Source: Acidobacteriota bacterium
GTDB taxonomy: Bacteria; Acidobacteriota; UBA890; WLXD01
Length of the DNA stretch: 64,000 bases
NCBI GenBank assembly: GCA_963666055.2
Contig: CAXWPH010000002.1
Span: forward strand, 160,001-224,000
Direction: 5' to 3'
Positions within the stretch are counted from its first letter, which is position 1. Each line of letters starts with the position of its first letter. The position numbers were made by a program, and so were the translations under genes. The notes below the pieces were generated by a model, which was given only the letters and a program-made list of their open reading frames with translations, did no database searches and was not told the origin of the DNA. Shown here piece after piece: positions 21,018 to 38,262 of this stretch.

Positions 21018-21914
21018 TTAGTTTGTCACCGGGGACTGCGTGAAGGCTCCGTTCCATAGCACCAAGTCGCACTCGTACGGGTCGCCGTTCCATCCGGCCG
21101 GCGCGGCCGGCCCCGATGCGCCGTCGGATCCCAGCGACGTCAGCGTGTAGGACTCGACCGTGTGCTCGTAGCTCCAGGCGAAGCCCCAGCGGTCGATCGG
21201 AGGCACTGCGCCTAGGTATTTCGGCGTCAGGTCGGCGAAGCTGTCGGCATAGTCGCCTTGGTCGACTGCGTACGTGCCGTTGGCGACGGCGATGGTGCGC
21301 ATGTCGGCCAGCGTACCCCGCTGGCGGGCACGATCGTAGGCGGTAATGAACTGCGCTACGCCGATCATCGATAGGACCATCACGACCGCCAGGATGACAA
21401 GCAACTCGATGAGCGAGAATCCGTCCGTACCGGTTGCTTTTCGTGGTGCTTCCCGTGAGGCGCTTCCGTGGCGGGCCTTCAGAGTCTCCGAAAGCTTGTT
21501 CAGGCGGTCGGCGACCTCCACGAACTCGTCCTTGGCGCGCAGCTGCGAATGCGCGTCGTAGTCACCTTCGGCGAGCCTGCGGATGTGTCGGCTGATGGGC
21601 ACCAGCGGTCCGACAAATCGGTGCAAAACGATCACCGTAAGCACCAGGGCGACGATGCCGAGGATCGGTAGTATCCAGACCGCGCGCAAGAGCTCAGTGC
21701 GGATGGCGACGTCGATCACCGGCGCGAGCGCTGCCGCACTGGTGCCCGCTTCGGTGAGGATACGTTCAAGGACACGGCGAACAGCCAGATAGGAGACTAG
21801 CTGCGCGAGTCCGGCGCCGATCGAGGCGAGGAAGAAGAACACCAGCGCGTAACGGAACTGCAGGCGCGGTCGGAGCAGGTAGTTGCGCAGTCGTCGTCTG
21901 CTGTTTCTGGCCAT
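21018..21914 (-). CDS. Fusion: 2TM + HAMP domain joined to a type IV pilin/GspG-like pseudopilin
   Basis: HRFVGPL...LAEGDY...LRAKDEFVEVADRLNKL (HAMP), then DG|FSLIELLVILAVV prepilin motif with E5, then DRWG..SY...YTLTSLGSDG (GspG-like C-terminus). Confidence 0.85.
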   Translation of the reverse strand: MARNSRRRLRNYLLRPRLQFRYALVFFFLASIGAGLAQLVSYLAVRRVLERILTEAGTSAAALAPVIDVAIRTELLRAVWILPILGIVALVLTVIVLHRFVGPLVPISRHIRRLAEGDYDAHSQLRAKDEFVEVADRLNKLSETLKARHGSASREAPRKATGTDGFSLIELLVILAVVMVLSMIGVAQFITAYDRARQRGTLADMRTIAVANGTYAVDQGDYADSFADLTPKYLGAVPPIDRWGFAWSYEHTVESYTLTSLGSDGASGPAAPAGWNGDPYECDLVLWNGAFTQSPVTN

Positions 21915-22104
21915 CGGACCCTCGTAGGTATCAGTTCCGACCAGTATTGACCCTTTGATGGCCCAATCAGAAGACGAAAATCGCCCCAGGCTGTTTTTGT
22001 CCATTCCTGGTCGTCAGACGTGCACCGTGATCGGGCGCGTCCGTTCCGGGGCGGGTGCACCGGCGCCGGGCTCTCTGCTCGTCGACGTCCTTGGCGGCGC
22101 TACG

Positions 22105-23116: not shown

Positions 23117-24775
23117 CTAGGTGTGTACAGCGGCTACGGGGCCGGATCGCGTACGGCCGGCGAAGAAGCCCACCACTCCCGGCACCAGCGCCAGCCCGAT
23201 GATGGCCAGCCCACTTACCAGGTAGGTGGAGTTACCGCTGGTGACCAACGGAAGCCCGAGCGCCACCGCGTCGATCACATAGTGGGCCACTATGCATGTC
23301 ACCAGGCCGTAGTGCAGGAAGGCGATCCCGAAGAGGACGCCCGCGATGGTCAGCTCGATGCCGCGGATGTACACCGGAAACACCGGGTAATTCGAATGGC
23401 CGAACGCCCAGATCGCAGCAGGGACGATCAACGCCACCGTCGTCGACCCCGACAGCTTCTTGAAAAGTGAGATCCCGAACAGGCGGTAGATGGTCTCCTC
23501 GGAGATCGCAGCAACGAGAGAGATGGTGAGCGGCGTGAGAAACGGGAACAGGTTATTAAAGATCTCCGAGTAGGGGCCCTCGGCGGGTAGCCAAGCGCCC
23601 ATGTAGCGTTGCGCAAACCAGTAGAAGCCGGTGAGGAAGCCGAGCAGCGTGGCCGCCAACGCGTAGCCGCGCAGCGCCGCGGCGCCGAACTGGCGGTTGA
23701 ATATCTTGCCGCGCACGGCGTCGGCGAACCCATGGATGCTGGCGGGGAAGTGGTCGCGCGCCATCGATTCGCCGGCGGCCGTCGGGAACATGACGAACAC
23801 GGTGTAGAACACGGCTCCGAGGGTCAGCGCGAGCACCGACACTCCGATGAATACCGGCCACCCGACCTGGGTCTGATACGAGAACAGCACGTTGGGCCAG
23901 CTCGTCGCGGTATATACGGCGAACATGGTTCCCACGATCACGCCGCAGGTGATCGCCACACGCCATTCGATGTTGCCGGTGCGGTAGCGGGCGATCGCGA
24001 TACCCATACCGGCGAGTGCTAACAGCACCGTCAACACGATGCTACCCACTGCGAGCAGGCTTCCGACGCTAAGCTCGCCCTGGAGCTCGCGCGAGAACTC
24101 CTCGGGTACCCGCATCGAGCGCACGTACCCGCCCACCTCGTCGCCCAGCACGCGCACCGACACTCGCGCGTAGCCGGTGCCAGCTTGCGCGTCGTCCGGG
24201 CGCCAAGCGATGTCGGTTCCGCGGACCTTCCATACGAACAGATGGTCTGTCCGATTGTCTTTCCGGTCGGCCGACGCCGAAACCGCTTCCAGTTGCGACA
24301 GGTCCCAACCCCTGCCGCGAACGAAGGCCTCGGCTCTGGCCCGCGCCGCAGGTTCATCGAGGTCGGCTCCGTCCGCGGCTTCCTCGACAACGTGTCGGAA
24401 GGCCACGACTTCACCATCGACGCCTACCTCGGCCAACCACTCCTCGGCGTCGAGTGGCCTGAACCAGCGAATGTCCCATCGCCAGACCGGCACCTCTTCG
24501 CGTGCCCAGCGCCCCGCTTCCTCGTCGCCGACGTTACGCTGCAGAAAGATCAGGGCCTCGCTGTCGCCGGAAAAGATCGCCGCCCGCCGGAAATCGCCCA
24601 GCTCGGCCCCCAGCCCCTCGATGAACTCAGTGGCGTTCGCGACGGCTTCTTCGCGGGTGACGTCCATCTCCACCAGGGCCAGCGGGACCGCCGACTGATA
24701 GAGCAGTACGACAACCGCCAGACCGACCGCGCCGAGGGCGGTCAGCACGAGATCGGAGCGGCTGAGCTTCAGCAT
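23117..24775 (-). CDS. CPBP (Abi/CAAX-type) intramembrane glutamic protease with large N-terminal extracytoplasmic domain
   Basis: EETIYR, WAFGH and HYVID motifs in the C-terminal TM region. Confidence 0.85.
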   Translation of the reverse strand: MLKLSRSDLVLTALGAVGLAVVVLLYQSAVPLALVEMDVTREEAVANATEFIEGLGAELGDFRRAAIFSGDSEALIFLQRNVGDEEAGRWAREEVPVWRWDIRWFRPLDAEEWLAEVGVDGEVVAFRHVVEEAADGADLDEPAARARAEAFVRGRGWDLSQLEAVSASADRKDNRTDHLFVWKVRGTDIAWRPDDAQAGTGYARVSVRVLGDEVGGYVRSMRVPEEFSRELQGELSVGSLLAVGSIVLTVLLALAGMGIAIARYRTGNIEWRVAITCGVIVGTMFAVYTATSWPNVLFSYQTQVGWPVFIGVSVLALTLGAVFYTVFVMFPTAAGESMARDHFPASIHGFADAVRGKIFNRQFGAAALRGYALAATLLGFLTGFYWFAQRYMGAWLPAEGPYSEIFNNLFPFLTPLTISLVAAISEETIYRLFGISLFKKLSGSTTVALIVPAAIWAFGHSNYPVFPVYIRGIELTIAGVLFGIAFLHYGLVTCIVAHYVIDAVALGLPLVTSGNSTYLVSGLAIIGLALVPGVVGFFAGRTRSGPVAAVHT

Positions 24776-24869
24776 TACGTACTCCGGCGGGAAAACGAGA
24801 ACGCTCGCCACGGGGTTTGACTACCGACAGAGAATAGCCTGGTCGCCCTTCGGGCCGAAGCCCTTACCA

Positions 24870-24947
24870 GAGTTCCTCAGCACCCTGCTAGTGGCGTGTG
24901 CGGGCGCCGCAGACCCCGCCTCCGCGGCCGCCACCACGGCCTGCTAG
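24870..24947 (-). repeat. 18-bp repeat copy 2 (24930-24947) plus related CTAGCAGGGTGCTGAGGAACTC (24870-24891)
   Basis: Read directly; resembles IS5/IS1182-type CTAG target plus CAGG.TG.TGA terminal sequence. Confidence 0.5.
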
Positions 24948-25798
24948 GTGCCACCGGGGGCGCGGGTCATCTGGAACGCCGGCGCTATCAAGGCCGCCAC
25001 CAGGTAGACGGCCGCGATCACCGCTACGGTCACCAGCAGGTTGCGTCGGTCGATGGGCTCGCTGCTCTCCCATCGGAACAGACGGCTATTGGCCCAGATG
25101 CCGACGCCCATGGTGGCGAAAAGCACGGCGATGGGGCCTGCCAGCTCGGCTAGTCCATACCCTCTGATCATTACTCCGTGGAGCGACTCGACGAGGTAGC
25201 TCGAGGGGATAAGCCGCGATGCTGTTTTCGCCCACTCGGGAAGCATGAAGGCTGGTAATGCGGCACCCGACCCGAAAATCAGGGGAAAGAACAGCAGGTT
25301 GGTGATGGCGGGAGCGCTGCGCATGTCCTGCGCCACGCTGCCTATGAATAGCCCTAGCGGCACGAAGGCCGCGGCGCCGATCAATAGCACCAACACGGTG
25401 AGCAGCAGCGAGCCGTCGACCTGATAGCGGAACACCAGCCAGCCCACGGCCGCCTGCGTGGTGATCGCCAACGACATGGTGACGATGGCCCGAATGCCGT
25501 TCGCTAGCACGATCGTCGTAGGCGTTATCGGCGTGGCGCGATAGCGCCGTAGGATGCCGGACTCGCGTTCCTTCACCATCAAATACGAGACGCCGAAAAA
25601 CGCTCCCGACATGATAGTGATGGTGAACAGACCCGGCATCATCAGCACCTTGTTTTCGACGCTGCGAAAGAAGATGAAGCCGAAGAGGAAGAGCCAAGTG
25701 AGCGGGAACAGGAGGGTCCAGAACAGCGAAGTCGGTGAACGGAAGGCCTGCAGCAGCCCGGCGTGCGTAAGCGGGCCCAATCCGCGCAGGTAGCTCAC
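24944..25798 (-). CDS. ABC-2 type exporter permease
   Basis: FWTLLFP, ERESGILRRYRATP, FGSG.....LP.W, FRWE. Confidence 0.9.
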   Translation of the reverse strand: MSYLRGLGPLTHAGLLQAFRSPTSLFWTLLFPLTWLFLFGFIFFRSVENKVLMMPGLFTITIMSGAFFGVSYLMVKERESGILRRYRATPITPTTIVLANGIRAIVTMSLAITTQAAVGWLVFRYQVDGSLLLTVLVLLIGAAAFVPLGLFIGSVAQDMRSAPAITNLLFFPLIFGSGAALPAFMLPEWAKTASRLIPSSYLVESLHGVMIRGYGLAELAGPIAVLFATMGVGIWANSRLFRWESSEPIDRRNLLVTVAVIAAVYLVAALIAPAFQMTRAPGGT

Positions 25799-26730
25799 GG
25801 CGAACTCTCCTCGCCGCTCTCTTCTTCGTCGAGGTCGTCTCCCATGAGCTCCAGATAGACGTCCTCCAGCGTTGGACGCTTGAGCCGGAGGTCGATTAAT
25901 CGCAGGTGCTGCGATCGCAGCATGTCGCCGAGGGCCAGAATCGTGGCGGTGGGATCACTGGTCGAGAACTTGTGATGAACGCCCTGTTGACCCAGTGCCT
26001 CCACGCCCACCGCCACCATCGGTGCAGGGTCCATGGTGCCGTCTACCTGGATCCAGATAGTGGAGGACTCCTTGGACTGGCCGACCAGATCAAAGGGCGT
26101 GCCGTCGGCTACGATCTCGCCTCGTCGCAGCATGATGACGCGATCGCACAGGTGCTCGGCCTCCTCGATGTAATGTGTGGTCAGCAAGGTGGTGCGCCCC
26201 TGGTCGCGCAGCTCCCGAACGATCTGGTGCAGGTCTCGGCGCGCCTTCGGATCGAGACCTGTCGTGGGCTCGTCGAGCATCACCAGCTCGGGGTCATGAA
26301 TGAGCGCGATGCCGATCACCAGCCGTTGCTTTTCGCCGCCCGACAGGGTGTCGGCCTTCCGGCCGGCCAGCCCCTCGAGGTCGACTCGCTCGAGGATGGC
26401 GTCCGCAGATTGCGCCGACTCGTAGAACGACGCGAACAGCTGGAGCAGCTCGCGCACCGTGAGCTCCGTAGGCAGCGGCGTAGTTTGCAGCTGCACCCCA
26501 AGTCGCTCCTTCAGCTTGCGGCTTTGTGTCGCGGGATCCAGTCCGAGCACCGAGACGGTGCCCGATGTCGGCTGCCGGAGCCCCTCGAAGATCTCCACGA
26601 GCGTCGTTTTGCCGGCGCCATTGGGGCCCAGGATCCCCACCACCCCGCCGCTGTCGATGTCGAGATCGATGCCACGGAGCGCGACTGTCGAGCCGTATTC
26701 TTTTCGCAGCCCCGCTGCCTGGATCACCAT
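25795..26730 (-). CDS. ABC exporter ATP-binding protein
   Basis: GPNGAGKTT, LSGGEKQR, LDEPTTGLD, TTH, PTLEDVYL. Confidence 0.95.
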   Translation of the reverse strand: MVIQAAGLRKEYGSTVALRGIDLDIDSGGVVGILGPNGAGKTTLVEIFEGLRQPTSGTVSVLGLDPATQSRKLKERLGVQLQTTPLPTELTVRELLQLFASFYESAQSADAILERVDLEGLAGRKADTLSGGEKQRLVIGIALIHDPELVMLDEPTTGLDPKARRDLHQIVRELRDQGRTTLLTTHYIEEAEHLCDRVIMLRRGEIVADGTPFDLVGQSKESSTIWIQVDGTMDPAPMVAVGVEALGQQGVHHKFSTSDPTATILALGDMLRSQHLRLIDLRLKRPTLEDVYLELMGDDLDEEESGEESSP

Positions 26731-28006: not shown

Positions 28007-28080
28007 GCGTGGTTTCCGCGGCTCTGCGGGCAACGCAGCAGGACAGTCTCCAGTATCGCAGCCTCGCAGGGGCACGCCCA

Positions 28081-28154
28081 CGGAATGAAGCGGAATGGCC
28101 GGGTGGTCGTGCCACTGGTCGATAGCATCGTCCGAGTGGCCGCCCCGGTGGCCG
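28081..28154 (-). promoter_or_regulatory. Putative LytTR operator direct repeats
   Basis: Five CG(G/A)CCA-core repeats at 28147-54, 28135-42, 28114-21, 28102-09 and 28094-101, just downstream of the LytTR gene and upstream of its likely target operon. Confidence 0.45.
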
Positions 28155-28169
28155 ATGCTGCGGTTATGG

Positions 28170-28943
28170 CTACCATCCGAGCAACTCGCGCAGCTGGCGC
28201 GCGCGCCGCCGGGAGACGTGCACCTGGATGCCGACCGCCGGCCGCAACACGGCCGTGTAGGTGCCCGAGAACATGGGTGCCAGGTGGTCGACCCACTCCA
28301 GGTTGACGATCGCAGCGCGAGAGACGCGAACGAAGGGCGGCGAGGGCAGACGCTCCTCGACCTCGTGGAGCGCTTGCTTGAGGCGGTAGCGTCCCTTCGG
28401 CGTGGCGGCCCAGGTGATGGTGTCCTCCACGCTCACGCAAGCAATGTCCTCGAGCTGGAGGTTGACGATCTTGCCGGCTCGATGACCTGCCAGATGGCCA
28501 CTGACACGCCGGGTGTTTCCTGGTGTTGCGGTTGGCGTTGTCGGCTGATCTTGCTGCGGGTGCCGCTGCCACAGCCCCTGTCGGACGCGCCTCAATGCTC
28601 GCGACAGCTGCTCGCGATCGATTGGCTTGACAAGATAGTCGGTACCTTCGAGGGCGAAGGCGTCGACGGCGTGTTCTTCGTAGGCGGTCGTAAAGACAGC
28701 CAGCGGTCGCACGCTCTCGGGAAGATGTTCGTGCAATGCGCGTAGGGTCTCCAGACCGTCCTTGTCGGGCATGCGGACGTCGAGAAAGACCACGTCGGGA
28801 CGTTCCTCGAGCACCACCTTGATCGCTTCGGTACCGCTTGCGGCCACCCCGACGAGCTCGACGTCGCTGTGCTCCGCAAGCAGGCGTTTCAGGCGGCGGC
28901 GAGCGAGCGGCTCATCGTCGACAGTTACGGCGCGGATGTTCAT
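28170..28943 (-). CDS. LytTR-family response regulator
   Basis: REC domain VDDEP, FLDVRMP, TTAY, YLVKP; LytTR domain FVRVSRAAIVN, VSRRRA. Confidence 0.95.
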   Translation of the reverse strand: MNIRAVTVDDEPLARRRLKRLLAEHSDVELVGVAASGTEAIKVVLEERPDVVFLDVRMPDKDGLETLRALHEHLPESVRPLAVFTTAYEEHAVDAFALEGTDYLVKPIDREQLSRALRRVRQGLWQRHPQQDQPTTPTATPGNTRRVSGHLAGHRAGKIVNLQLEDIACVSVEDTITWAATPKGRYRLKQALHEVEERLPSPPFVRVSRAAIVNLEWVDHLAPMFSGTYTAVLRPAVGIQVHVSRRRARQLRELLGW

Positions 28944-30040
28944 GACGGTATCCTCATCTCGATTCGAGTGCCGGGGTCGAGCTTGGCGGCGACCAGCGTG
29001 GCAGCGCCGCGATAACGTAGCGCGAGGCGTTGCAGGACGTTGGCCAGGCCGCCGCCCGCGCCACCCGTTCCGGGGCTCAGCTCGACGGCCGCTAGCGAAG
29101 AGTCGCCGGCGCTGTTCGCCAGACGGCGTTGCAGCTCATCGGGCAGTCCAGGTCCGTCGTCCTCGACGCACACAACCAGTGTGTCGGTGGTGCACTCCAC
29201 CCTGATGCGGACGGTGCCCCCCTCGGCGCGTGTTGCCACGGCGTGCTGCACGGCGTTCTCCACCAGCGGTTGCAGCACCAATCCCGGAATGCTGCGCTGC
29301 AAAGCAGCCGGGTCGACTTCCTGCTCGAATCGCAGGCGCTCTCCGAGGCGCGCTTTCTCGACTCGAATGTAGTGGCCCACGGCTTCGAGCTCGCGAAATA
29401 GCGGCACGGTGCCCTCGGCGGACGAACGCAGCGTATAGCGCAGCAGATGTGCCAAGTCGCCAACCAGCTGCTCGGCAACGGCAGGGTCATCGTGGGTCAG
29501 CTCGGCGAGCGCATTGAAAGCGTTGAACAGGAAATGCGGGTTGATCTGCGCCTGCAGCGCTTTGAGGCGTGCTTGCAGCGCCGCCTCTCGCATCGCTGCC
29601 TCGCGTGAGCGGGCGGCCTCGATCTCTCGCCGCATGCGCGCGTGAGAGTAGATCACGCCCGCCAATCCCAGGCCGAGGACCACGGCCAGTGCCGGCAAGG
29701 TCACGGCTTCCCGCCAGCGAAGCAGCCAGTATGAGGGCGGTTCGCGTACCAGCGTCGCCCAGCTGGTAACGATGGTCCCAAGTAGGATGAGCGCCTTGTC
29801 CAGAGGGTTGCGAAGGTAGGCGGGAAAGCTCGCGTAGCTCGGCTCGACGAGGCGACGGAAGACGATACCGCTGAGTCCACCGCAAAGCAGGGCCCATCTG
29901 GGCTCCCAGGCGCTGTGCAGGTACCAGAGCAGCAGCAGCGACACCAGCGCTCCGCCGAGAGCAGCGCCGAGGTCCGAGACCACACCGCGGACGCCGCGTC
30001 GGTGCGCCGGTCGCCCTGGCACGGTTGTCTCGGTAGTCAT
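28940..30040 (-). CDS. LytS/YehU-type sensor histidine kinase
   Basis: LQAQINPHFLFNAFN H-box, LQPLVENAVQH N-box, VEDDGPG, GGGLANV; 4-TM N-terminus. Confidence 0.95.
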   Translation of the reverse strand: MTTETTVPGRPAHRRGVRGVVSDLGAALGGALVSLLLLWYLHSAWEPRWALLCGGLSGIVFRRLVEPSYASFPAYLRNPLDKALILLGTIVTSWATLVREPPSYWLLRWREAVTLPALAVVLGLGLAGVIYSHARMRREIEAARSREAAMREAALQARLKALQAQINPHFLFNAFNALAELTHDDPAVAEQLVGDLAHLLRYTLRSSAEGTVPLFRELEAVGHYIRVEKARLGERLRFEQEVDPAALQRSIPGLVLQPLVENAVQHAVATRAEGGTVRIRVECTTDTLVVCVEDDGPGLPDELQRRLANSAGDSSLAAVELSPGTGGAGGGLANVLQRLALRYRGAATLVAAKLDPGTRIEMRIPS

Positions 30041-31212
30041 GTGGTGAGCTCGCGTGGTCGTAGGACGAGCAGCGTTATGTCGTCGGCCCGCTCGGCATCG
30101 GGTCCGGTGTGGCGATGGAGCGCGGCGAGCACCGCAGCGCTGATGTCAGCTGCGGTGCCATGACGGTGGGCTTGTGTCACCTGCTCCAGGCGCCCCTCGC
30201 CGAACTCCTCGGCGTGGCCATCTACAGCCTCGGTGACGCCGTCGGTATAGATCAACAGGATCTCGTCGAGCTCCATGGTGCGCTCTTGCAGCTCGTACTC
30301 GCTGTCGGCGAACAGCCCCAGCGGTCGCCCACCGCCGAACAACCGGTGCACTGCATCTGGGCCGATGATCAGCGGGGGGTTGTGGCCGGCGTTCACGTAG
30401 CGCAAGTATCCAGCCAGTGTCAGATGCCCGACGAAGAACGTCGCGTAGCGTTCGGGTGCGGTGCGCTCGACCAGGAAACGGTTCACCAGGCGGCAGATTT
30501 CGGCGAGGTCGTCATGTACCGAGTGGGCTGCAAGAAACGCGGATTGTAGCGACGACATGAGGAACGCGGCAGGCACACCCTTGCCGGATACGTCACCCAC
30601 GGCGAAACAAATGCCGTGCTCGCCGCGGTCGAGAACCTCGTAGTAGTCGCCACCCACCTGCCGTGAGGCGATGTTGACCGCATGTGTCTCTACCCACGAC
30701 CGGGTCGGCGCTCGTCCGCGCAGCAAGCTTTGCTGGATTCGACCGGCGATCTGAAGGTCGTCCTCCATCCGCTGCTTGGCCTCGATCTCCCGCTCCAGGC
30801 GCCGGTACGTATAGATCAGCGACGCCAAGCCGAGGCCCAGGATTACACCCAATACAGGCAGGGTGATCGCCTCGCGCCAGCGCAGCAGCCAATAGGATGC
30901 CGGCTCGCGAGCGAGCGTGCCCCAGGTGGCGAACACCGTCCCCAGTGCGATCACCCCGACGCTCAACGGATGTCGCAGATATGGAGGGAACGCCGAGTAG
31001 CTGGGGCGCACGAACCCTCGCGTCGTCACGCCGCCCAGGCCGCCGCAGACAAGCGCCCAGATCCAACCCGGATGTCGCTCGCCGTGCAGATAGAGCAGGA
31101 GGACGTATGCCAGCAGCGTGCCGATGGTGGCTGCCAGCAGGTCGGCAGCGAGACGCTGCCCGATGCCCGGGTCGGGCGCTGATTCGCCGATTGACGCCGA
31201 TGCAGTCGTCAT
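30037..31212 (-). CDS. Membrane-bound PP2C/SpoIIE (RsbU-like) phosphatase
   Basis: IQQSLL, GGDYY, GDVSGKGVPAA, NAGHNPP, YTDGVTEA, DDITLL; 4-TM N-terminus. Confidence 0.95.
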   Translation of the reverse strand: MTTASASIGESAPDPGIGQRLAADLLAATIGTLLAYVLLLYLHGERHPGWIWALVCGGLGGVTTRGFVRPSYSAFPPYLRHPLSVGVIALGTVFATWGTLAREPASYWLLRWREAITLPVLGVILGLGLASLIYTYRRLEREIEAKQRMEDDLQIAGRIQQSLLRGRAPTRSWVETHAVNIASRQVGGDYYEVLDRGEHGICFAVGDVSGKGVPAAFLMSSLQSAFLAAHSVHDDLAEICRLVNRFLVERTAPERYATFFVGHLTLAGYLRYVNAGHNPPLIIGPDAVHRLFGGGRPLGLFADSEYELQERTMELDEILLIYTDGVTEAVDGHAEEFGEGRLEQVTQAHRHGTAADISAAVLAALHRHTGPDAERADDITLLVLRPRELTT

Positions 31213-31243: not shown

Positions 31244-31807
31244 TCAATTCGCCCGCGTCAAGTACTCGCCGGTGCTCGTATCGACCCGAACGCGGTCGCC
31301 CTGGTTGATGAACGGAGGAACCTGGATCACCAGACCAGTCTCCAGCGTAGCCGGCTTGGTCTGCGCCGCTGCGGTGGCGCCTTTGATGGCCGGATCCGTC
31401 TGCGTGACCACCATCTCGACGGCGCCGGGAAGCTCGACCCCGAGGGCCTCCGTACCCACGAAGGTGACTTTGACCTCGGTGTTCGCCAGCAGGTAGGGCA
31501 GCTCTGCCTGGAGCTTGTCAGCGGTCATCCCGGACTGCTCGTAGGTCTCGAGGTCCATGAAAGTGTAGAGATCGCCGTCCAGAAAAAGGTATTGCATGGT
31601 GCGTCGGTCAACGTGTGCCGTTTCCAACGTTTCGGCAGAGCGGAAGCGCTTGTCGATCAGCGTCCCAGTGCGCAAGTTGCGCAGCTTCGTCTGCATCACC
31701 GCTTGACCTTTCCCCGGTGTGACGTGGGTGAACTCCTGGACACGTAACAGCTCACCGTCGACTTGCAGGACCATGCCCCGCTTCAACTTCGTAGCCGGAA
31801 TGCCCAC
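31244..31807 (-). CDS. efp: Elongation factor P
   Basis: HVTPGKGQA loop, FMDLETYEQ, KPATLETG..IQVPPFI..GD; GTG start at 31807 after AGGAG. Confidence 0.97.
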   Translation of the reverse strand: MGIPATKLKRGMVLQVDGELLRVQEFTHVTPGKGQAVMQTKLRNLRTGTLIDKRFRSAETLETAHVDRRTMQYLFLDGDLYTFMDLETYEQSGMTADKLQAELPYLLANTEVKVTFVGTEALGVELPGAVEMVVTQTDPAIKGATAAAQTKPATLETGLVIQVPPFINQGDRVRVDTSTGEYLTRAN

Positions 31808-31939
31808 CGATGGCTCTCCTGGTGAGGTGACTTGCTGTCTGGCGCCCACTGTCGGCTCGACGCCCTCTGCGGCCACCCGGATTCCCCAGAGCGTACCGTG
31901 CGTCCGAGGGGATTTCGACCACCGGGCTGTGCTGCGGTT

Positions 31940-34200: not shown

Positions 34201-36657
34201 CTAGCCGAGCTCGAACAGCCGACCGAGCAGCATCTGGAGCGGAAAGCGACCGAGTGCGCCCGCCGCTGCCGCCAGCTCGTCGAAGCGTTTCGTGCTGTCG
34301 GCCTCGAAGCCGGTGCCCCACAGCAATACCGGCAGTGGATCGGCGGCGTGCTGGCCGCTCTCGGACAACGTTGCATGGTCCGACGCCACGCCTACCCGCA
34401 GTGGCTTGCCGGCGTTGGCGTCGAGAAGAACGCCGAGCTCCCGGTCGAGTCTCTCCAGAAACTGCACCTTAAGGTCGGGTCGGCGGTCGTGGCTGGCGAT
34501 GTCTGCACCCTTGACGTGCAGGATGGTCAGGTCGCCCTGCTCGAGGGCGCTCATCGCTGCAGCCATTTTTGCGGGCAGGTCGGTGTCGAGATTGGCGGTC
34601 ATCTGCGGCTCGTTGACGGTCTCCGCACCCAACCAGCGCGCCAGGCCGATGACCGTCCGATCCCCGCTGATGCACGAGACGTGCAGCGGTATCCCAGCCT
34701 CTTCGAGGGTCACCAGCCGGTGCAGTCGTCCAGCGCCGCGGCTCAGCACTGCGTTTGCCGGCGGTTGTCCGTGCTGTCGGCGACTCTCGTTGATCGGGTG
34801 AACCTTCAGTACCGCACGTGCCTCGGCTTCGAACGCCGAGAGTATGCGCGCGGTATGAGTGGCGGCCTCGTTGGCGCCGTCGATAGGCTCCACGGTCAGC
34901 GGCGGTCCGGTCGGTGCTCCGTCGCCCGGGTCGCTGCCGGTGATTGCGGGCGACAGGTTGGGTCCCTGGGCGACAATCGCCAAGCGGTGCTCGGTCGCCG
35001 CTTTGACGCGCAGCCGCACGCCGCGAGTGACGCTCTCCGGTAACCGAATCGCGTCCAGGGCGTCAGCTAGCGCCACTGCCCCGTCGCGTATTCGTCCCGC
35101 CCGTCGATCGACCACGTTGCCGTCGTCGTCGACTGTCGACAGGTTGGCGCGCCACGCGATGTCCCCGGGCAACATCTCGAGGCCAGCGCCGAGCGCCTCG
35201 ACGGGCCCTCGCTTCAGTGCTCGGGGCGACTGCCCGAATAGGGCCAGGGTTCCGGCCGCGGTGTCCGGTACCACGCCCGGTGCTACCGGATCTGCCAGGC
35301 CGAGCGTTCCCTCCTGGGCCAACCGGTCGAGGTTCGGCGTGTTGGCCGCCTGCAGCGGCGTGCGACCCCCGAGCGCACGCACGGCGCGGTCAGCAACACC
35401 ATCGATGATCAGCAGCAACGTCGCGGTGTCGCCGTGCGACTCAACCCAGTCGGCATGCGCCAGGGCCGGCACCTGTCGTTCGAGCTCGGCGGTCACCAAC
35501 TGCACCGCGTGGACCTCCGGATTGCCATCACGGGAGGTGTCGAGAAACGGAATGTCGTGTGCCTCGGCCATTTGCATCAAGTGATCATTGATGGCGCGAA
35601 TGCCGTCGAACGCGTCGAGGTAACGATCGGCGCGGCGCGAACCCGTCGGTGCGCGGGTGAGGATACGAGCGCGGAGTGACTCCTCGTCGGGGGTGCCGAG
35701 CATGATGGCGACCTGGTACGCCTCGCCGGCGAGGTCCGCGAACGGCACGATGCCTGGCAACAGGTGTACGCCCTCTACGATGATGCTGACGTTCTCCTGA
35801 ATGGCGCGCTCGATGACCGCGCGCGTGCCAACACAGACTCGCCTTGCCTGCTCCTGGTAGCTCTCGAGCAGCGTGTCGGGGCTGTCGGCGACAGCGTGGT
35901 CGGCGGGTACGTTTGCCTCGTGCGTAAACTCGAAGCTCGAGCGGTGTAGCGCCGGCAAGATCTCGGGTGTGAACACCATACGCATTACCTGCCGGATCGT
36001 GTCGGTGGAGGAGACGCGGTAGATACGAAGAAGCGGGGCGAGCTGCAGCGCCAGGCTCGATTTGCCAGTGCCGCTGGTGCCGCCGATGTAGACGATTACC
36101 GGGCGAGGGAGCCGGTTGATGCGTCGGATCGTCCGGTAGCGCAGCTTGGCCTTGACGCCGGTGTGTTGCTCGAGCAGCACATCGACCCGGCGGGCGACCT
36201 CGGTGCTCGGCAAGCTGGCAACGGACTCCTCGCGTAGCTGGGATTCGACTTCGGCGGCGAGGCGATAGGCGCGCTCGGCAGGCACACCGCTTGCGTAGAT
36301 CGTTTCGGCCAGGAGCCCCTTCGAGAAGGGATGAGCCTGCCCCTTGCTGATGACCTCCATGCGCGGCTCTGCTTCGTCCGGTTCCGCCAGCTTGAAAGTC
36401 ACCTCAGGCCCCAACCGCTTCGCCAGCGCGGATGCGATCAACTTGCGCAGCTCGTCCTTGTCGACCTCTTCCCGACCCTTGAGCGTGTCGCGGACGTCGC
36501 GCGCCGTTGCGTAGGCCTCCTCGAACTCGACGCCCCGGCGCACCAGGTCGTGGGTCACCATGCCGCGCAGGAAACGAGTGCGCGCGCCGGATGCCGACAC
36601 CACGTGCAGCGATCCGCCTTGTTTCGCTGGTGGTTTTTTACGGGGCGGCTTGGCCAT
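34201..36657 (-). CDS. Fusion: 2x ATP-cone + 2-phosphoglycerate kinase + ApgM-type cofactor-independent phosphoglycerate mutase
   Basis: RFLRG and PFSKGLL cones; IGGTSGTGKS, STDTIRQVMR, LHRSSF, IVEGVHL (2PGK); IIDGVADR, TPLQAANTPNLD, HVKGADIASHD, SDHAT, HAADP (ApgM). Confidence 0.88.
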   Translation of the reverse strand: MAKPPRKKPPAKQGGSLHVVSASGARTRFLRGMVTHDLVRRGVEFEEAYATARDVRDTLKGREEVDKDELRKLIASALAKRLGPEVTFKLAEPDEAEPRMEVISKGQAHPFSKGLLAETIYASGVPAERAYRLAAEVESQLREESVASLPSTEVARRVDVLLEQHTGVKAKLRYRTIRRINRLPRPVIVYIGGTSGTGKSSLALQLAPLLRIYRVSSTDTIRQVMRMVFTPEILPALHRSSFEFTHEANVPADHAVADSPDTLLESYQEQARRVCVGTRAVIERAIQENVSIIVEGVHLLPGIVPFADLAGEAYQVAIMLGTPDEESLRARILTRAPTGSRRADRYLDAFDGIRAINDHLMQMAEAHDIPFLDTSRDGNPEVHAVQLVTAELERQVPALAHADWVESHGDTATLLLIIDGVADRAVRALGGRTPLQAANTPNLDRLAQEGTLGLADPVAPGVVPDTAAGTLALFGQSPRALKRGPVEALGAGLEMLPGDIAWRANLSTVDDDGNVVDRRAGRIRDGAVALADALDAIRLPESVTRGVRLRVKAATEHRLAIVAQGPNLSPAITGSDPGDGAPTGPPLTVEPIDGANEAATHTARILSAFEAEARAVLKVHPINESRRQHGQPPANAVLSRGAGRLHRLVTLEEAGIPLHVSCISGDRTVIGLARWLGAETVNEPQMTANLDTDLPAKMAAAMSALEQGDLTILHVKGADIASHDRRPDLKVQFLERLDRELGVLLDANAGKPLRVGVASDHATLSESGQHAADPLPVLLWGTGFEADSTKRFDELAAAAGALGRFPLQMLLGRLFELG

Positions 36658-36797
36658 GGACGCGAGTGGGAGGGGGCCGAGGATCAACCGTAGCGGCCCT
36701 CGACAGAGTCGGCGTCTCGCTGTGTTTGCGAGCCGCGAACATGCGCCCGGTGAGCGTACGTTCGATCACTCCACTGAGCAACACGAGAACGCGCGCC

Positions 36798-37166
36798 TCA
36801 GATCGTTGGCGAGGCTCCACTGCGCCCGATCGACCGGAATGCCATCGCAGCGACAATCAGGCTCCCGAGGATCGCCGTGCCGGCAAGGCCTATGGCGTGT
36901 CCTAGATTCGTGTCGGCGGCGTCGATCCAACTTTGGGTGTCGATGTTCATTCCCGCCCCTCCGGTCCAGCCGAGGATCATGAAGGTGGCGAATATCAGGC
37001 TGAGGCAGGTGACGAAGCCCGGCAGGAAACGAGCCCACGGGAACTCGATCGGCGGCGGCATTTCGGCTTCCTCGCGTACCCTCTCCATCACTCGAGCGGT
37101 GAACCCGTTGGTAGGGCGCACCACCGGTTCGTTCGTGAGGATGCGGTCCAAGTCGTCCATGTTCAT
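36798..37166 (-). CDS. Putative membrane anti-sigma factor
   Basis: Translationally coupled to the ECF gene; P..GFTARVMERV motif followed by two TM helices. Confidence 0.7.
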   Translation of the reverse strand: MNMDDLDRILTNEPVVRPTNGFTARVMERVREEAEMPPPIEFPWARFLPGFVTCLSLIFATFMILGWTGGAGMNIDTQSWIDAADTNLGHAIGLAGTAILGSLIVAAMAFRSIGRSGASPTI

Positions 37167-37786
37167 GCCTCCTCGGTTGCCAGCGACGGCCGGCACATCA
37201 TGCCGGCGAGCTTGTCTTGCAACAACTTGCGGCCGCGAAACAGCCGCGCCTTCACCGTGCCCTCGCGCAGACGGGAAGTGCGTGCTGTCTCGGCCAGATC
37301 CATCTCATGAAAGTAGTAGAGGACGATCACGTCGCGATACTTCGGGGGCAAGGTCGCCACGGCGCGCCGCACTACGTCGGCGCGCAGGTCACTGTCCAAC
37401 TCGACGCTGCGATCCCCAGCGATCAACAAGTCGAGCCCGTCGAGCTCCACGGCCGGCGGCAACCGCCGACGCATCGCGCTACGGTACTGATTGAGCGCTA
37501 CCGAGAACATCCAGGTCGAGAACCGTCCTTCTCGCCGCCACTGTGGCAGGCCTCCGAAGATCTTTAGAAACGCCTCCTGCGCCAGCTCCTCTGCCTCTCC
37601 CTGATCCCGGCAGAAGCGATACGCCATGTTGACAAGAGGCTCCTGCCAACGCGTGACGATACCCTCGAAAGCATCGGTGTCGCCGGCGAGTACCCGTCGT
37701 ACGGCGCTTGCGTCGTCGTCGTATCGTTCTGCGCTGCCCGCCATGTGTCTATCCCAGTGGACTGCCGTCGCGCTCGCCAGACCCAT
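37163..37786 (-). CDS. ECF (SigW/RpoE-like) sigma-70 factor
   Basis: GDTDAF, AEELAQEAFLK, FSTW, LPPKYR, GTVKARLFRGR. Confidence 0.95.
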   Translation of the reverse strand: MGLASATAVHWDRHMAGSAERYDDDASAVRRVLAGDTDAFEGIVTRWQEPLVNMAYRFCRDQGEAEELAQEAFLKIFGGLPQWRREGRFSTWMFSVALNQYRSAMRRRLPPAVELDGLDLLIAGDRSVELDSDLRADVVRRAVATLPPKYRDVIVLYYFHEMDLAETARTSRLREGTVKARLFRGRKLLQDKLAGMMCRPSLATEEA

Positions 37787-37821
37787 GGTGGTGACCTCTC
37801 CTCGCCGGATACCGGATCGAT

Positions 37822-38262
37822 CTATTCGTCACCGGGTCGGGGGAAGGCACCTACCCGCGGCGCCGGCAGCGCCAGCTTCGGTGCGGGCAGTAGCGCGTAC
37901 GCCAGCATCGCCAGTCCGATAAACAGCGGAATGCTGCCGACCATCCACAGGTCTGGGTCGTCGATGAACCGCAGCCCGAAGATAAGCCCCACGCCGGCGC
38001 CCGAGAGGATGAAGCCTGTCGCCATCATGCCCTGACGGCGTCGATGTTGTTCGGCCTCGTACTCGTATCGCACCAGATCTTGAACCTGCTGGGCGTTCAT
38101 TTCGCCAGCGTCGACAAGCTTCTTGCGAAACTCGTAGCGATAGTACGCCTCGCGCTCCTTGCGGCGCTGCTCGGCCCAGCCAACGACCGCCAGGAAACTG
38201 AATAGGGAGATCGCGCCGACGATCGGGATCATGAAGATCAGAGCTTGTGGGAACCAATTCAT
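37822..38262 (-). CDS. DUF6249-like membrane protein
   Basis: TM, then RRKEREAYYR, then two TMs (GVGL, IPLFIGLA); first gene of the ECF operon. Confidence 0.65.
   Translation of the reverse strand: MNWFPQALIFMIPIVGAISLFSFLAVVGWAEQRRKEREAYYRYEFRKKLVDAGEMNAQQVQDLVRYEYEAEQHRRRQGMMATGFILSGAGVGLIFGLRFIDDPDLWMVGSIPLFIGLAMLAYALLPAPKLALPAPRVGAFPRPGDE

Follow-up and report, generated by a model that had tools for sequence, protein, structure and literature searches.

A four-helix membrane domain shared by a PP2C phosphatase and a LytS-type kinase in an acidobacterial signalling cassette, and the apparent concerted evolution of its two copies

In a 64,000-nucleotide stretch of an Acidobacteriota genome (GenBank assembly GCA_963666055.2, contig CAXWPH010000002.1, positions 160,001 to 224,000; this whole stretch is hereafter the window), a membrane-anchored PP2C-type phosphatase and the LytS-type histidine kinase encoded directly after it begin with copies of the same four-helix membrane domain, and are followed by a LytTR response regulator and a beta-helix membrane protein. 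Sequence comparisons among relatives indicate concerted evolution of the two sensor copies from the first transmembrane helix (TM1) to the middle of the fourth (TM4). The kinase, regulator and beta-helix protein form the core of this cassette, and the phosphatase is an add-on. We give roughly an even chance to the interpretation that one membrane cue, received through the two matched domains, splits into two branches, one transcriptional and one acting on Ser/Thr. Coordinates are positions within the window, where all features described lie on the reverse strand; G000 denotes the source genome (5.7 Mb), and other G and L codes denote genomes and loci of its relatives.

The phosphatase (P0001, 391 residues, 30037..31212) has a SpoIIE/RsbU-type catalytic domain (Pfam SpoIIE, E=3e-43, residues 198-385) with its metal-binding Asp motifs. 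The kinase (P0002, 366 residues, 28940..30040) matches His_kinase PF06580 (E=3e-23) and HATPase_c (E=5e-13) and displays H, N, G1 and G2 boxes, while the regulator (P0003, 257 residues, 28170..28943) combines the Pfam domains Response_reg and LytTR. Both junctions, PP2C/kinase and kinase/regulator, are ATGA overlaps. Catalytic motifs are intact in the PP2C (GGDYY187, DVSGKG207, TDGV323, ADDIT376) and in the kinase (H169 box, N box, DDGPG, GGAGGG), and the receiver of the regulator carries DDE and FLDVRMP. Kinases of the order to which the source genome belongs retain the H box (20/20), G1 (19/20) and the N box pattern (16/20); PP2C motifs 1, 2 and 8 are retained in 16/16 and 28/28 sequences, and motif 11 was visible by eye in 12/16 rows missed by the pattern.

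The four-helix domain occupies residues ~20-145 of the PP2C (30778..31155) and ~19-146 of the kinase (29603..29986). Alignment of the two N-termini gave 78 identities in 150 aligned columns and a score of 387, whereas 2000 shuffles scored 34 on average and 61 at most; the DNA of the two copies is 72% identical across 152 nt. These are the only copies that tblastn and a profile search detected in the 5.7 Mb genome. A hydropathy profile shows four hydrophobic helices; an AlphaFold2 model of the kinase domain (46-row alignment; predicted local distance difference test score, pLDDT, 84) places them at residues 3-27, 32-54, 59-84 and 94-134, running on into a long C-terminal helix. An initial interpretation of the window made from its letters alone (the sequence-only reading) had proposed that the N-terminal domains (~30770-31150 and ~29610-29980) are paralogous, share conserved sequence blocks and a four-TM domain, and precede enzymes with retained catalytic motifs; each of these proposals held, and every quoted block was found. 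The distribution of charges predicts that loops 1 and 3, both short, face outward and that loop 2 and the two termini are inside. The kinase segment formed by the TM3-TM4 loop and the start of TM4 (29687..29746), marked out by identity comparison and segment trees and predicted from its charged residues to face outward, corresponds to ~30850-30909 in the PP2C.

Evidence for concerted evolution came from trees and identities of the copies, in which f1 and f2 denote families. A tree built with 38 of the order's domains unites the kinase and PP2C copies of f1 (95/94), apart from those of f2, and monophyly of the kinase copies is rejected for the whole domain (p=0.013). A 61-row tree places the kinase and PP2C copies of a distant acidobacterial clade in a group of their own (100/100). 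When individual segments were compared (23-82 columns, trees of 30 rows), both TM1-TM3 and the loop grouped by family, with a kinase clade rejected by the approximately unbiased (AU) test (p=0.006 and p=0.015, respectively), whereas the end of TM4 with the coiled coil (the last 28 columns) produced a kinase clade (support 97) and rejected a family clade (p=0.027). The test was not significant once the loop alone was removed (p=0.26). The segment tracking lineage most strongly is the TM3-TM4 loop with the start of TM4: over 16 two-copy genomes, kinase and PP2C loops are identical at 0.60 of positions within a family and 0.28 across families, and loop orthologues across families reach only 0.25-0.31. 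The relationship is reversed in the TM4 end and coiled coil, where orthologues show 0.52-0.55 identity and paralogues 0.45. Individual changes follow the same course, both f2 copies having a common insertion of 2-3 residues and both copies of genus g3 a common Tyr-to-Val change that requires two base changes.

Four-fold sites gave no sign of recent conversion at the DNA level, likeness being 0.42 within a genome and 0.43 between genomes of a family; silent sites are saturated, so that only events younger than about the genus level would show. The lack of a within-genome excess implies that any copying is old and that today's match is held by selection at the protein level. The matching likely stems from copying that recurred, as gene conversion or as re-duplication, and was then preserved by purifying selection.

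The cassette is widely conserved. Among 26 genomes sampled from the order, 22 carry the domain, including 11/11 of the source's family and 11/15 of the sister family; the four without it belong to one genus and are small and incomplete. Wherever contigs permit, efp is followed by the genes for PP2C, kinase and LytTR regulator, then by that for the beta-helix protein, and finally by those for the ABC ATPase and permease. The upstream neighbour efp (31244..31876), constant in the order and useful as a synteny marker, is probably outside the functional system. Of the 22 domain-bearing genomes, 19 have the PP2C ahead of the kinase (15 whole on one contig, three split at contig ends and one whose PP2C is truncated where the contig stops); one is undecidable at a contig cut (G014) and two have lost the PP2C. 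Irregular loci were observed in G002 (L021:9022-10229, PP2C frameshifted), G012 (L035:8918-10791, PP2C missing, kinase and LytTR frameshifted) and G022 (L045:9097-9316, a short PP2C remnant), each of which could reflect true decay or assembly error.

A first domain search covered 61 genomes. In a subsequent phylum search of 401 genomes, the weaker matches were PP2Cs with a kinase after them, and a locus bearing the name Acidobacteria (L062) has the same four genes. The distant clade was sampled at 31 loci, from 20 of 27 matched genomes plus 11 weak-match genomes (two of the loci coincide, G098 and G163 being one genome); here PP2C precedes the kinase in 28/31 and a beta-helix gene follows LytTR in 27/31. 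Profile comparison with the order's domain gave probabilities of 93 and 89% for the PP2C copy of the distant clade and 54 and 17% for its kinase copy, with reversed controls at or below 6%; the clade's own kinase and PP2C domains match one another at 99.65%. A third lineage (8/61 genomes, around G062) has a single domain copy and the order beta-helix gene, kinase, LytTR. As a control, among the 80 general LytS loci listed, a PP2C lies within 6 kb in three, and only L062 is of the twin kind. Triplets of PP2C, histidine kinase and LytTR regulator, for which the sequence-only reading had suggested a search, thus occur in the order and in the distant clade, and the pairing is conserved far beyond the genome in which it was noticed.

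Database comparisons yielded no established identity for the domain. The N-termini of PP2C and kinase have nothing over the Pfam cut-off, the four-helix domain matched no entry of NCBIfam or Pfam, no fold of the Protein Data Bank (PDB) stood out from the helical background, and 5TM-5TMR_LYT (PF07694), a known family that could have explained it, had no match at E<=0.1 in 46 members, 32 members or P0002. The absence of a named family anticipated from the letters alone is therefore upheld. Foldseek returned nothing at E<=0.001, the best Z in fold comparison was 8.3, in the range usual for helical bundles, and in the ESM Atlas the domain fell in clusters without a name, the best named leads being PF06580 proteins at 0.82. 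An AlgZ/FimS-type N-terminus was considered and rejected: hhalign against a profile of 88 AlgZ-family N-termini gave probabilities of 6.0, 0.8 and 1.1%, values compatible with at most a very remote kinship.

Three large searches found the domain only in LytS kinases and SpoIIE phosphatases. A kinase-domain query of 5.8 billion proteins retrieved 30 matches, comprising 27 LytS-type kinases and three SpoIIE proteins, one of the 30 being annotated Acidobacteria bacterium. A profile search of 1.84 billion representatives retrieved 29, of which nine short fragments were left unscanned; the 20 scanned were 13 kinases, four SpoIIE proteins, one fragment without a family and two repeat-rich false positives (P0044, P0063), which were discarded as carriers. 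A wider-alignment search gave 59 matches (52 SpoIIE, six kinases, one without a family), one of them annotated Candidatus Polarisedimenticolia. A plasmid search gave a match confined to the catalytic part. One general acidobacterial LytS kinase from Pyrinomonadaceae (L060) matched weakly (probability 63%; E=3.5e-9 when the distant-clade profile was run against 71 N-termini), so that the domain may, on this similarity, be a branch of a wider family without a name. At this locus (L060:5515-7487) LytTR comes after the kinase with the remote copy, and no PP2C lies within 5.5 kb upstream.

The beta-helix membrane protein (P0004, 26738..28006) is the fourth component of the cassette, one that the sequence-only reading had missed, and is tied to it more closely than the PP2C is. 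Alignment with relatives makes ATG 28006 the likely start, giving 422 residues, and the AlphaFold2 model (pLDDT 92) shows a bactofilin-like beta-helix followed by a C-terminal helical membrane bundle. Its similarity to bactofilin PF04519 falls just under the cut-off (E=1e-5; 26.2 bits vs 27.9), and a structure search found no clear match (bactofilin 6rib at E=0.24). Between the LytTR and beta-helix genes (28052..28141) lies a repeat, GACCGyTCA ... GGCCryT, with a 20 bp period; in the window it forms three LytTR-type direct-repeat boxes (28141-28133, 28120-28112 and 28100-28092, spaced 21 and 20 bp), 3' of which is a conserved -10-like GATACT (28057-28052). A scan with the sigma-70 consensus found no promoter. 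The repeat motif contains 25 bits of information, compared with 11-12 in shuffles, and a matrix trained without the source genus ranked the window site 3rd of 11,453,700 positions. In the PP2C-free lineage, whose operon begins with the beta-helix gene, the same matrix beat every shuffle at 6/6 loci that could be tested. The rank of this upstream repeat marks the beta-helix gene as the likely target of the LytTR regulator. The core of the repeat resembles an AlgR site, CCGTTCGTC, given in passages of PMC4064291.

The next two genes encode the ATPase (25795..26730; constant in the order, sporadic elsewhere) and, as identified by Pfam and gene order, the permease (24944..25798) of an ABC-2 exporter; the ATPase gene is likely co-transcribed with the beta-helix gene. 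In most f1 genomes the ABC genes are followed by a gene for an Rce1-like (CAAX/Abi) membrane protein (23117-24811); an Abi-domain protein is reported as a controller of kinases in S. aureus (PMC5854430). The promoter matrix also scored 16.8 on six near-identical matches in a multicopy element on G000 contigs C5, C6, C13, C14 and C15, which is probably a repeat unrelated to the regulon.

For the phosphatase branch, no STAS or RsbW-like gene occurs within the 64-kb window, as the sequence-only reading had remarked of STAS and anti-sigma kinase genes; they are found on other contigs of G000, two STAS genes, both with the conserved Ser, on C15 and one RsbW-like gene on C14. RsbU-type PP2Cs usually dephosphorylate STAS proteins of the RsbV type, and the two STAS proteins are candidate substrates. 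Five SpoIIE-type proteins of G000 exceed the cut-off, the cassette PP2C included. Judged by its catalytic domain, the order's PP2C belongs with another, unlinked PP2C encoded in the same genomes (support 100). In G000 this closest relative lies outside the window (C2:263533-266136, reverse strand); counterparts occur in G007 and G011, and it could be either donor or offspring. For the twin of the order and that of the distant clade, a single origin is not rejected when three nested non-twin PP2Cs are included (p=0.47) and is rejected without them (p=1e-5), and kinase trees disagree on whether the order and the distant clade are sisters.

How the two branches might operate can be outlined from these features and from family knowledge. 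The membrane domains of kinase and PP2C would read the same membrane cue. LytS kinases transfer phosphate from His to Asp on LytTR regulators; the cassette kinase would thus phosphorylate its regulator, which would then switch on the genes for the beta-helix protein and the ABC exporter. The PP2C would relay that cue to a Ser/Thr target whose gene lies outside the cassette, presumably by dephosphorylating an RsbV-like STAS protein. The domain is without a soluble outer sensor and, by analogy with FimS-AlgR, likely monitors the beta-helix protein that its own regulator induces, for feedback or inventory control of that protein, probably under envelope stress. The notion in the sequence-only reading that one stimulus feeds two phospho-chemistries gains indirect support from the concerted evolution of the sensors and the intact motifs, and is still something that we infer. 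A bolder version, which we regard as possible and would sooner doubt than accept, has both enzymes docking on the same beta-helix protein: the outward sensor face would have been re-copied repeatedly, and the break inside TM4 would let each enzyme keep its own signalling helix. If true, such shared docking would constitute a co-receptor junction of His-Asp and Ser/Thr partner-switch signalling, kept by concerted evolution.

Several observations weigh against the split of one cue into two branches. The cassette has neither a STAS nor an anti-sigma gene linked to it, and the four other SpoIIE-type PP2Cs of G000 could serve the two STAS proteins of that genome. PP2C is absent from G012, where efp directly precedes the kinase, from the distant-clade locus of G099 and from 8/8 stretches of the third lineage, and has collapsed to a remnant in G022; its loss in several lineages means that the core does not need it, a dispensability that the sequence-only reading had overlooked. 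Matching of the two copies is not constant, since they have drifted to ~21% profile identity in the distant clade, and the promoter matrix performs poorly there, with 8/29 loci above the 95% null, six of those eight from the PP2C-free lineage. The segments compared are short, with borders picked after the alignment was seen, and conversion can keep tandem genes alike with no selection for likeness. A role of the beta-helix protein as possible co-sensor is suggested by gene order and analogy only.

Three other explanations draw on the same evidence. The PP2C might be a partner subunit, its membrane domain joining that of the kinase in mixed dimers or oligomers and so tuning the kinase's output, with the copies matched through contact. 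LytS-type kinases and RsbU-type PP2Cs are dimers, the ATGA overlap, by translational coupling, suits equal amounts, and co-variation spans TM1-TM3 besides the loop; yet the TM4 end and coiled coil, the expected drivers of dimer choice, follow enzyme rather than lineage, which favours homodimers, and the retention of PP2C Asp motifs 1, 2 and 8 in every sequence counted above, together with the persistence of the kinase without PP2C in several lineages, makes this rather unlikely. Alternatively, the PP2C could through ordinary shuffling have acquired the anchor of the neighbouring kinase, with occasional gene conversion re-copying it between proteins that act independently. We hold this to be unlikely. 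Sensor domains commonly occur in both kinases and serine phosphatases (Cache, PMC4822843), and the grouping of the order's PP2C catalytic domain with the unlinked PP2C fits such an acquisition, as do the several losses of PP2C; but the loops stay near-identical despite saturated silent sites, the break inside TM4 is at a functionally sensible place, the same gene order appears in two deeply separated clades, and among the general LytS loci listed a nearby PP2C is as rare as reported above. That the PP2C acts within the cassette, on the regulator, the kinase or the cytoplasmic loops of the beta-helix protein, so that both enzymes converge on one output, would suit the lack of a linked STAS partner and the coupling of the genes in one operon. 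We consider it quite improbable, given that RsbU-type enzymes usually act on STAS proteins, of which the genome has two, and that matched neighbours included no gene for a Ser/Thr kinase, although no family-directed search was made.

Three further features near the cassette were recorded. In a single ORF (open reading frame; 21018-22004), a membrane part containing HAMP is fused to a pilin-like part of the N-methyl/T2SSG kind; the ORF is split in G002 and undivided at similar length in several relatives. An 828-residue fusion (34201-36687) combines ATP-cone, P-loop kinase-like and phosphoglycerate mutase-like domains. Only some f1 genomes have, close to the cassette, a trio made up of DUF6249, an ECF sigma factor and a small membrane protein (36798-38262).

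Neither the catalytic parts nor the occurrence of one sensor family in different enzyme classes is new. The unusual feature is that a kinase and a phosphatase encoded in tandem have inputs matched within lineages, with a break discernible between the half that senses and the half that signals, and no description of this cassette was found in the literature searched, largely openly accessible texts without supplements. The loci, whose hosts are uncultured, define a membrane sensor domain without a name, point to a likely target in a family of beta-helix membrane proteins not yet characterised, and offer a natural swap series for asking how a single membrane input couples to two types of enzyme.

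Among known systems, the kinase has the traits of LytS-type PF06580 proteins: a conserved His, GHKL ATPase boxes, an adjacent receiver-LytTR regulator and predicted sites in direct repeats. In BtsS/BtsR (YehU/YehT) and LytS/LytR, which similarly pair His_kinase PF06580 with a LytTR regulator, the regulated gene encodes a membrane protein and is preceded by direct repeats; BtsR and LytR are the best NCBIfam matches of the cassette regulator, both below cut-off. Unlike BtsS and LytS, the cassette kinase is without 5TM-5TMR_LYT or GAF input, the predicted target is a beta-helix membrane protein with an ABC exporter, and a PP2C twin is present. FimS(AlgZ)-AlgR of Pseudomonas aeruginosa, as partly described in PMC4064291 and PMC5979040, is similar in having a PF06580 kinase with four membrane helices, a LytTR partner and a similar DNA box, and neither kinase has a soluble periplasmic domain. 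Passages of PMC5979040 report that FimS, with four helices and no periplasmic domain, binds pilins induced by AlgR, and it is proposed to monitor AlgR-induced membrane proteins (PMC4064291, PMC5979040). The input domains are nonetheless not detectably homologous (probability <=6%), six AlgZ rows form a clade of their own in the catalytic tree (97) without the cassette kinases, and the cassette kinase keeps its ATP-binding boxes whereas FimS is described in part of PMC5979040 as having no canonical motif; the passages of PMC4064291 and PMC5979040 drawn on here describe no PP2C twin.

The cassette PP2C resembles RsbU/SpoIIE phosphatases, including membrane-bound SiaA, in placing SpoIIE after a coiled-coil linker and in having all metal-binding motifs, although a SiaA-type biofilm phosphatase was rejected as its identity (full-length NCBIfam model, 53 bits vs a cut-off of 700). 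As in RsbU systems, STAS and RsbW-like proteins exist in G000, though unlinked; unlike them, the cassette has no linked STAS or kinase partner, and its input domain is copied from the adjoining histidine kinase. CHASE and MASE are shared sensor superfamilies, and Cache likewise is one input domain placed before both histidine kinases and serine phosphatases (PMC4822843). Unlike Cache, the four-helix domain was found with two outputs only, in tandem within one operon, and re-matched within lineages.

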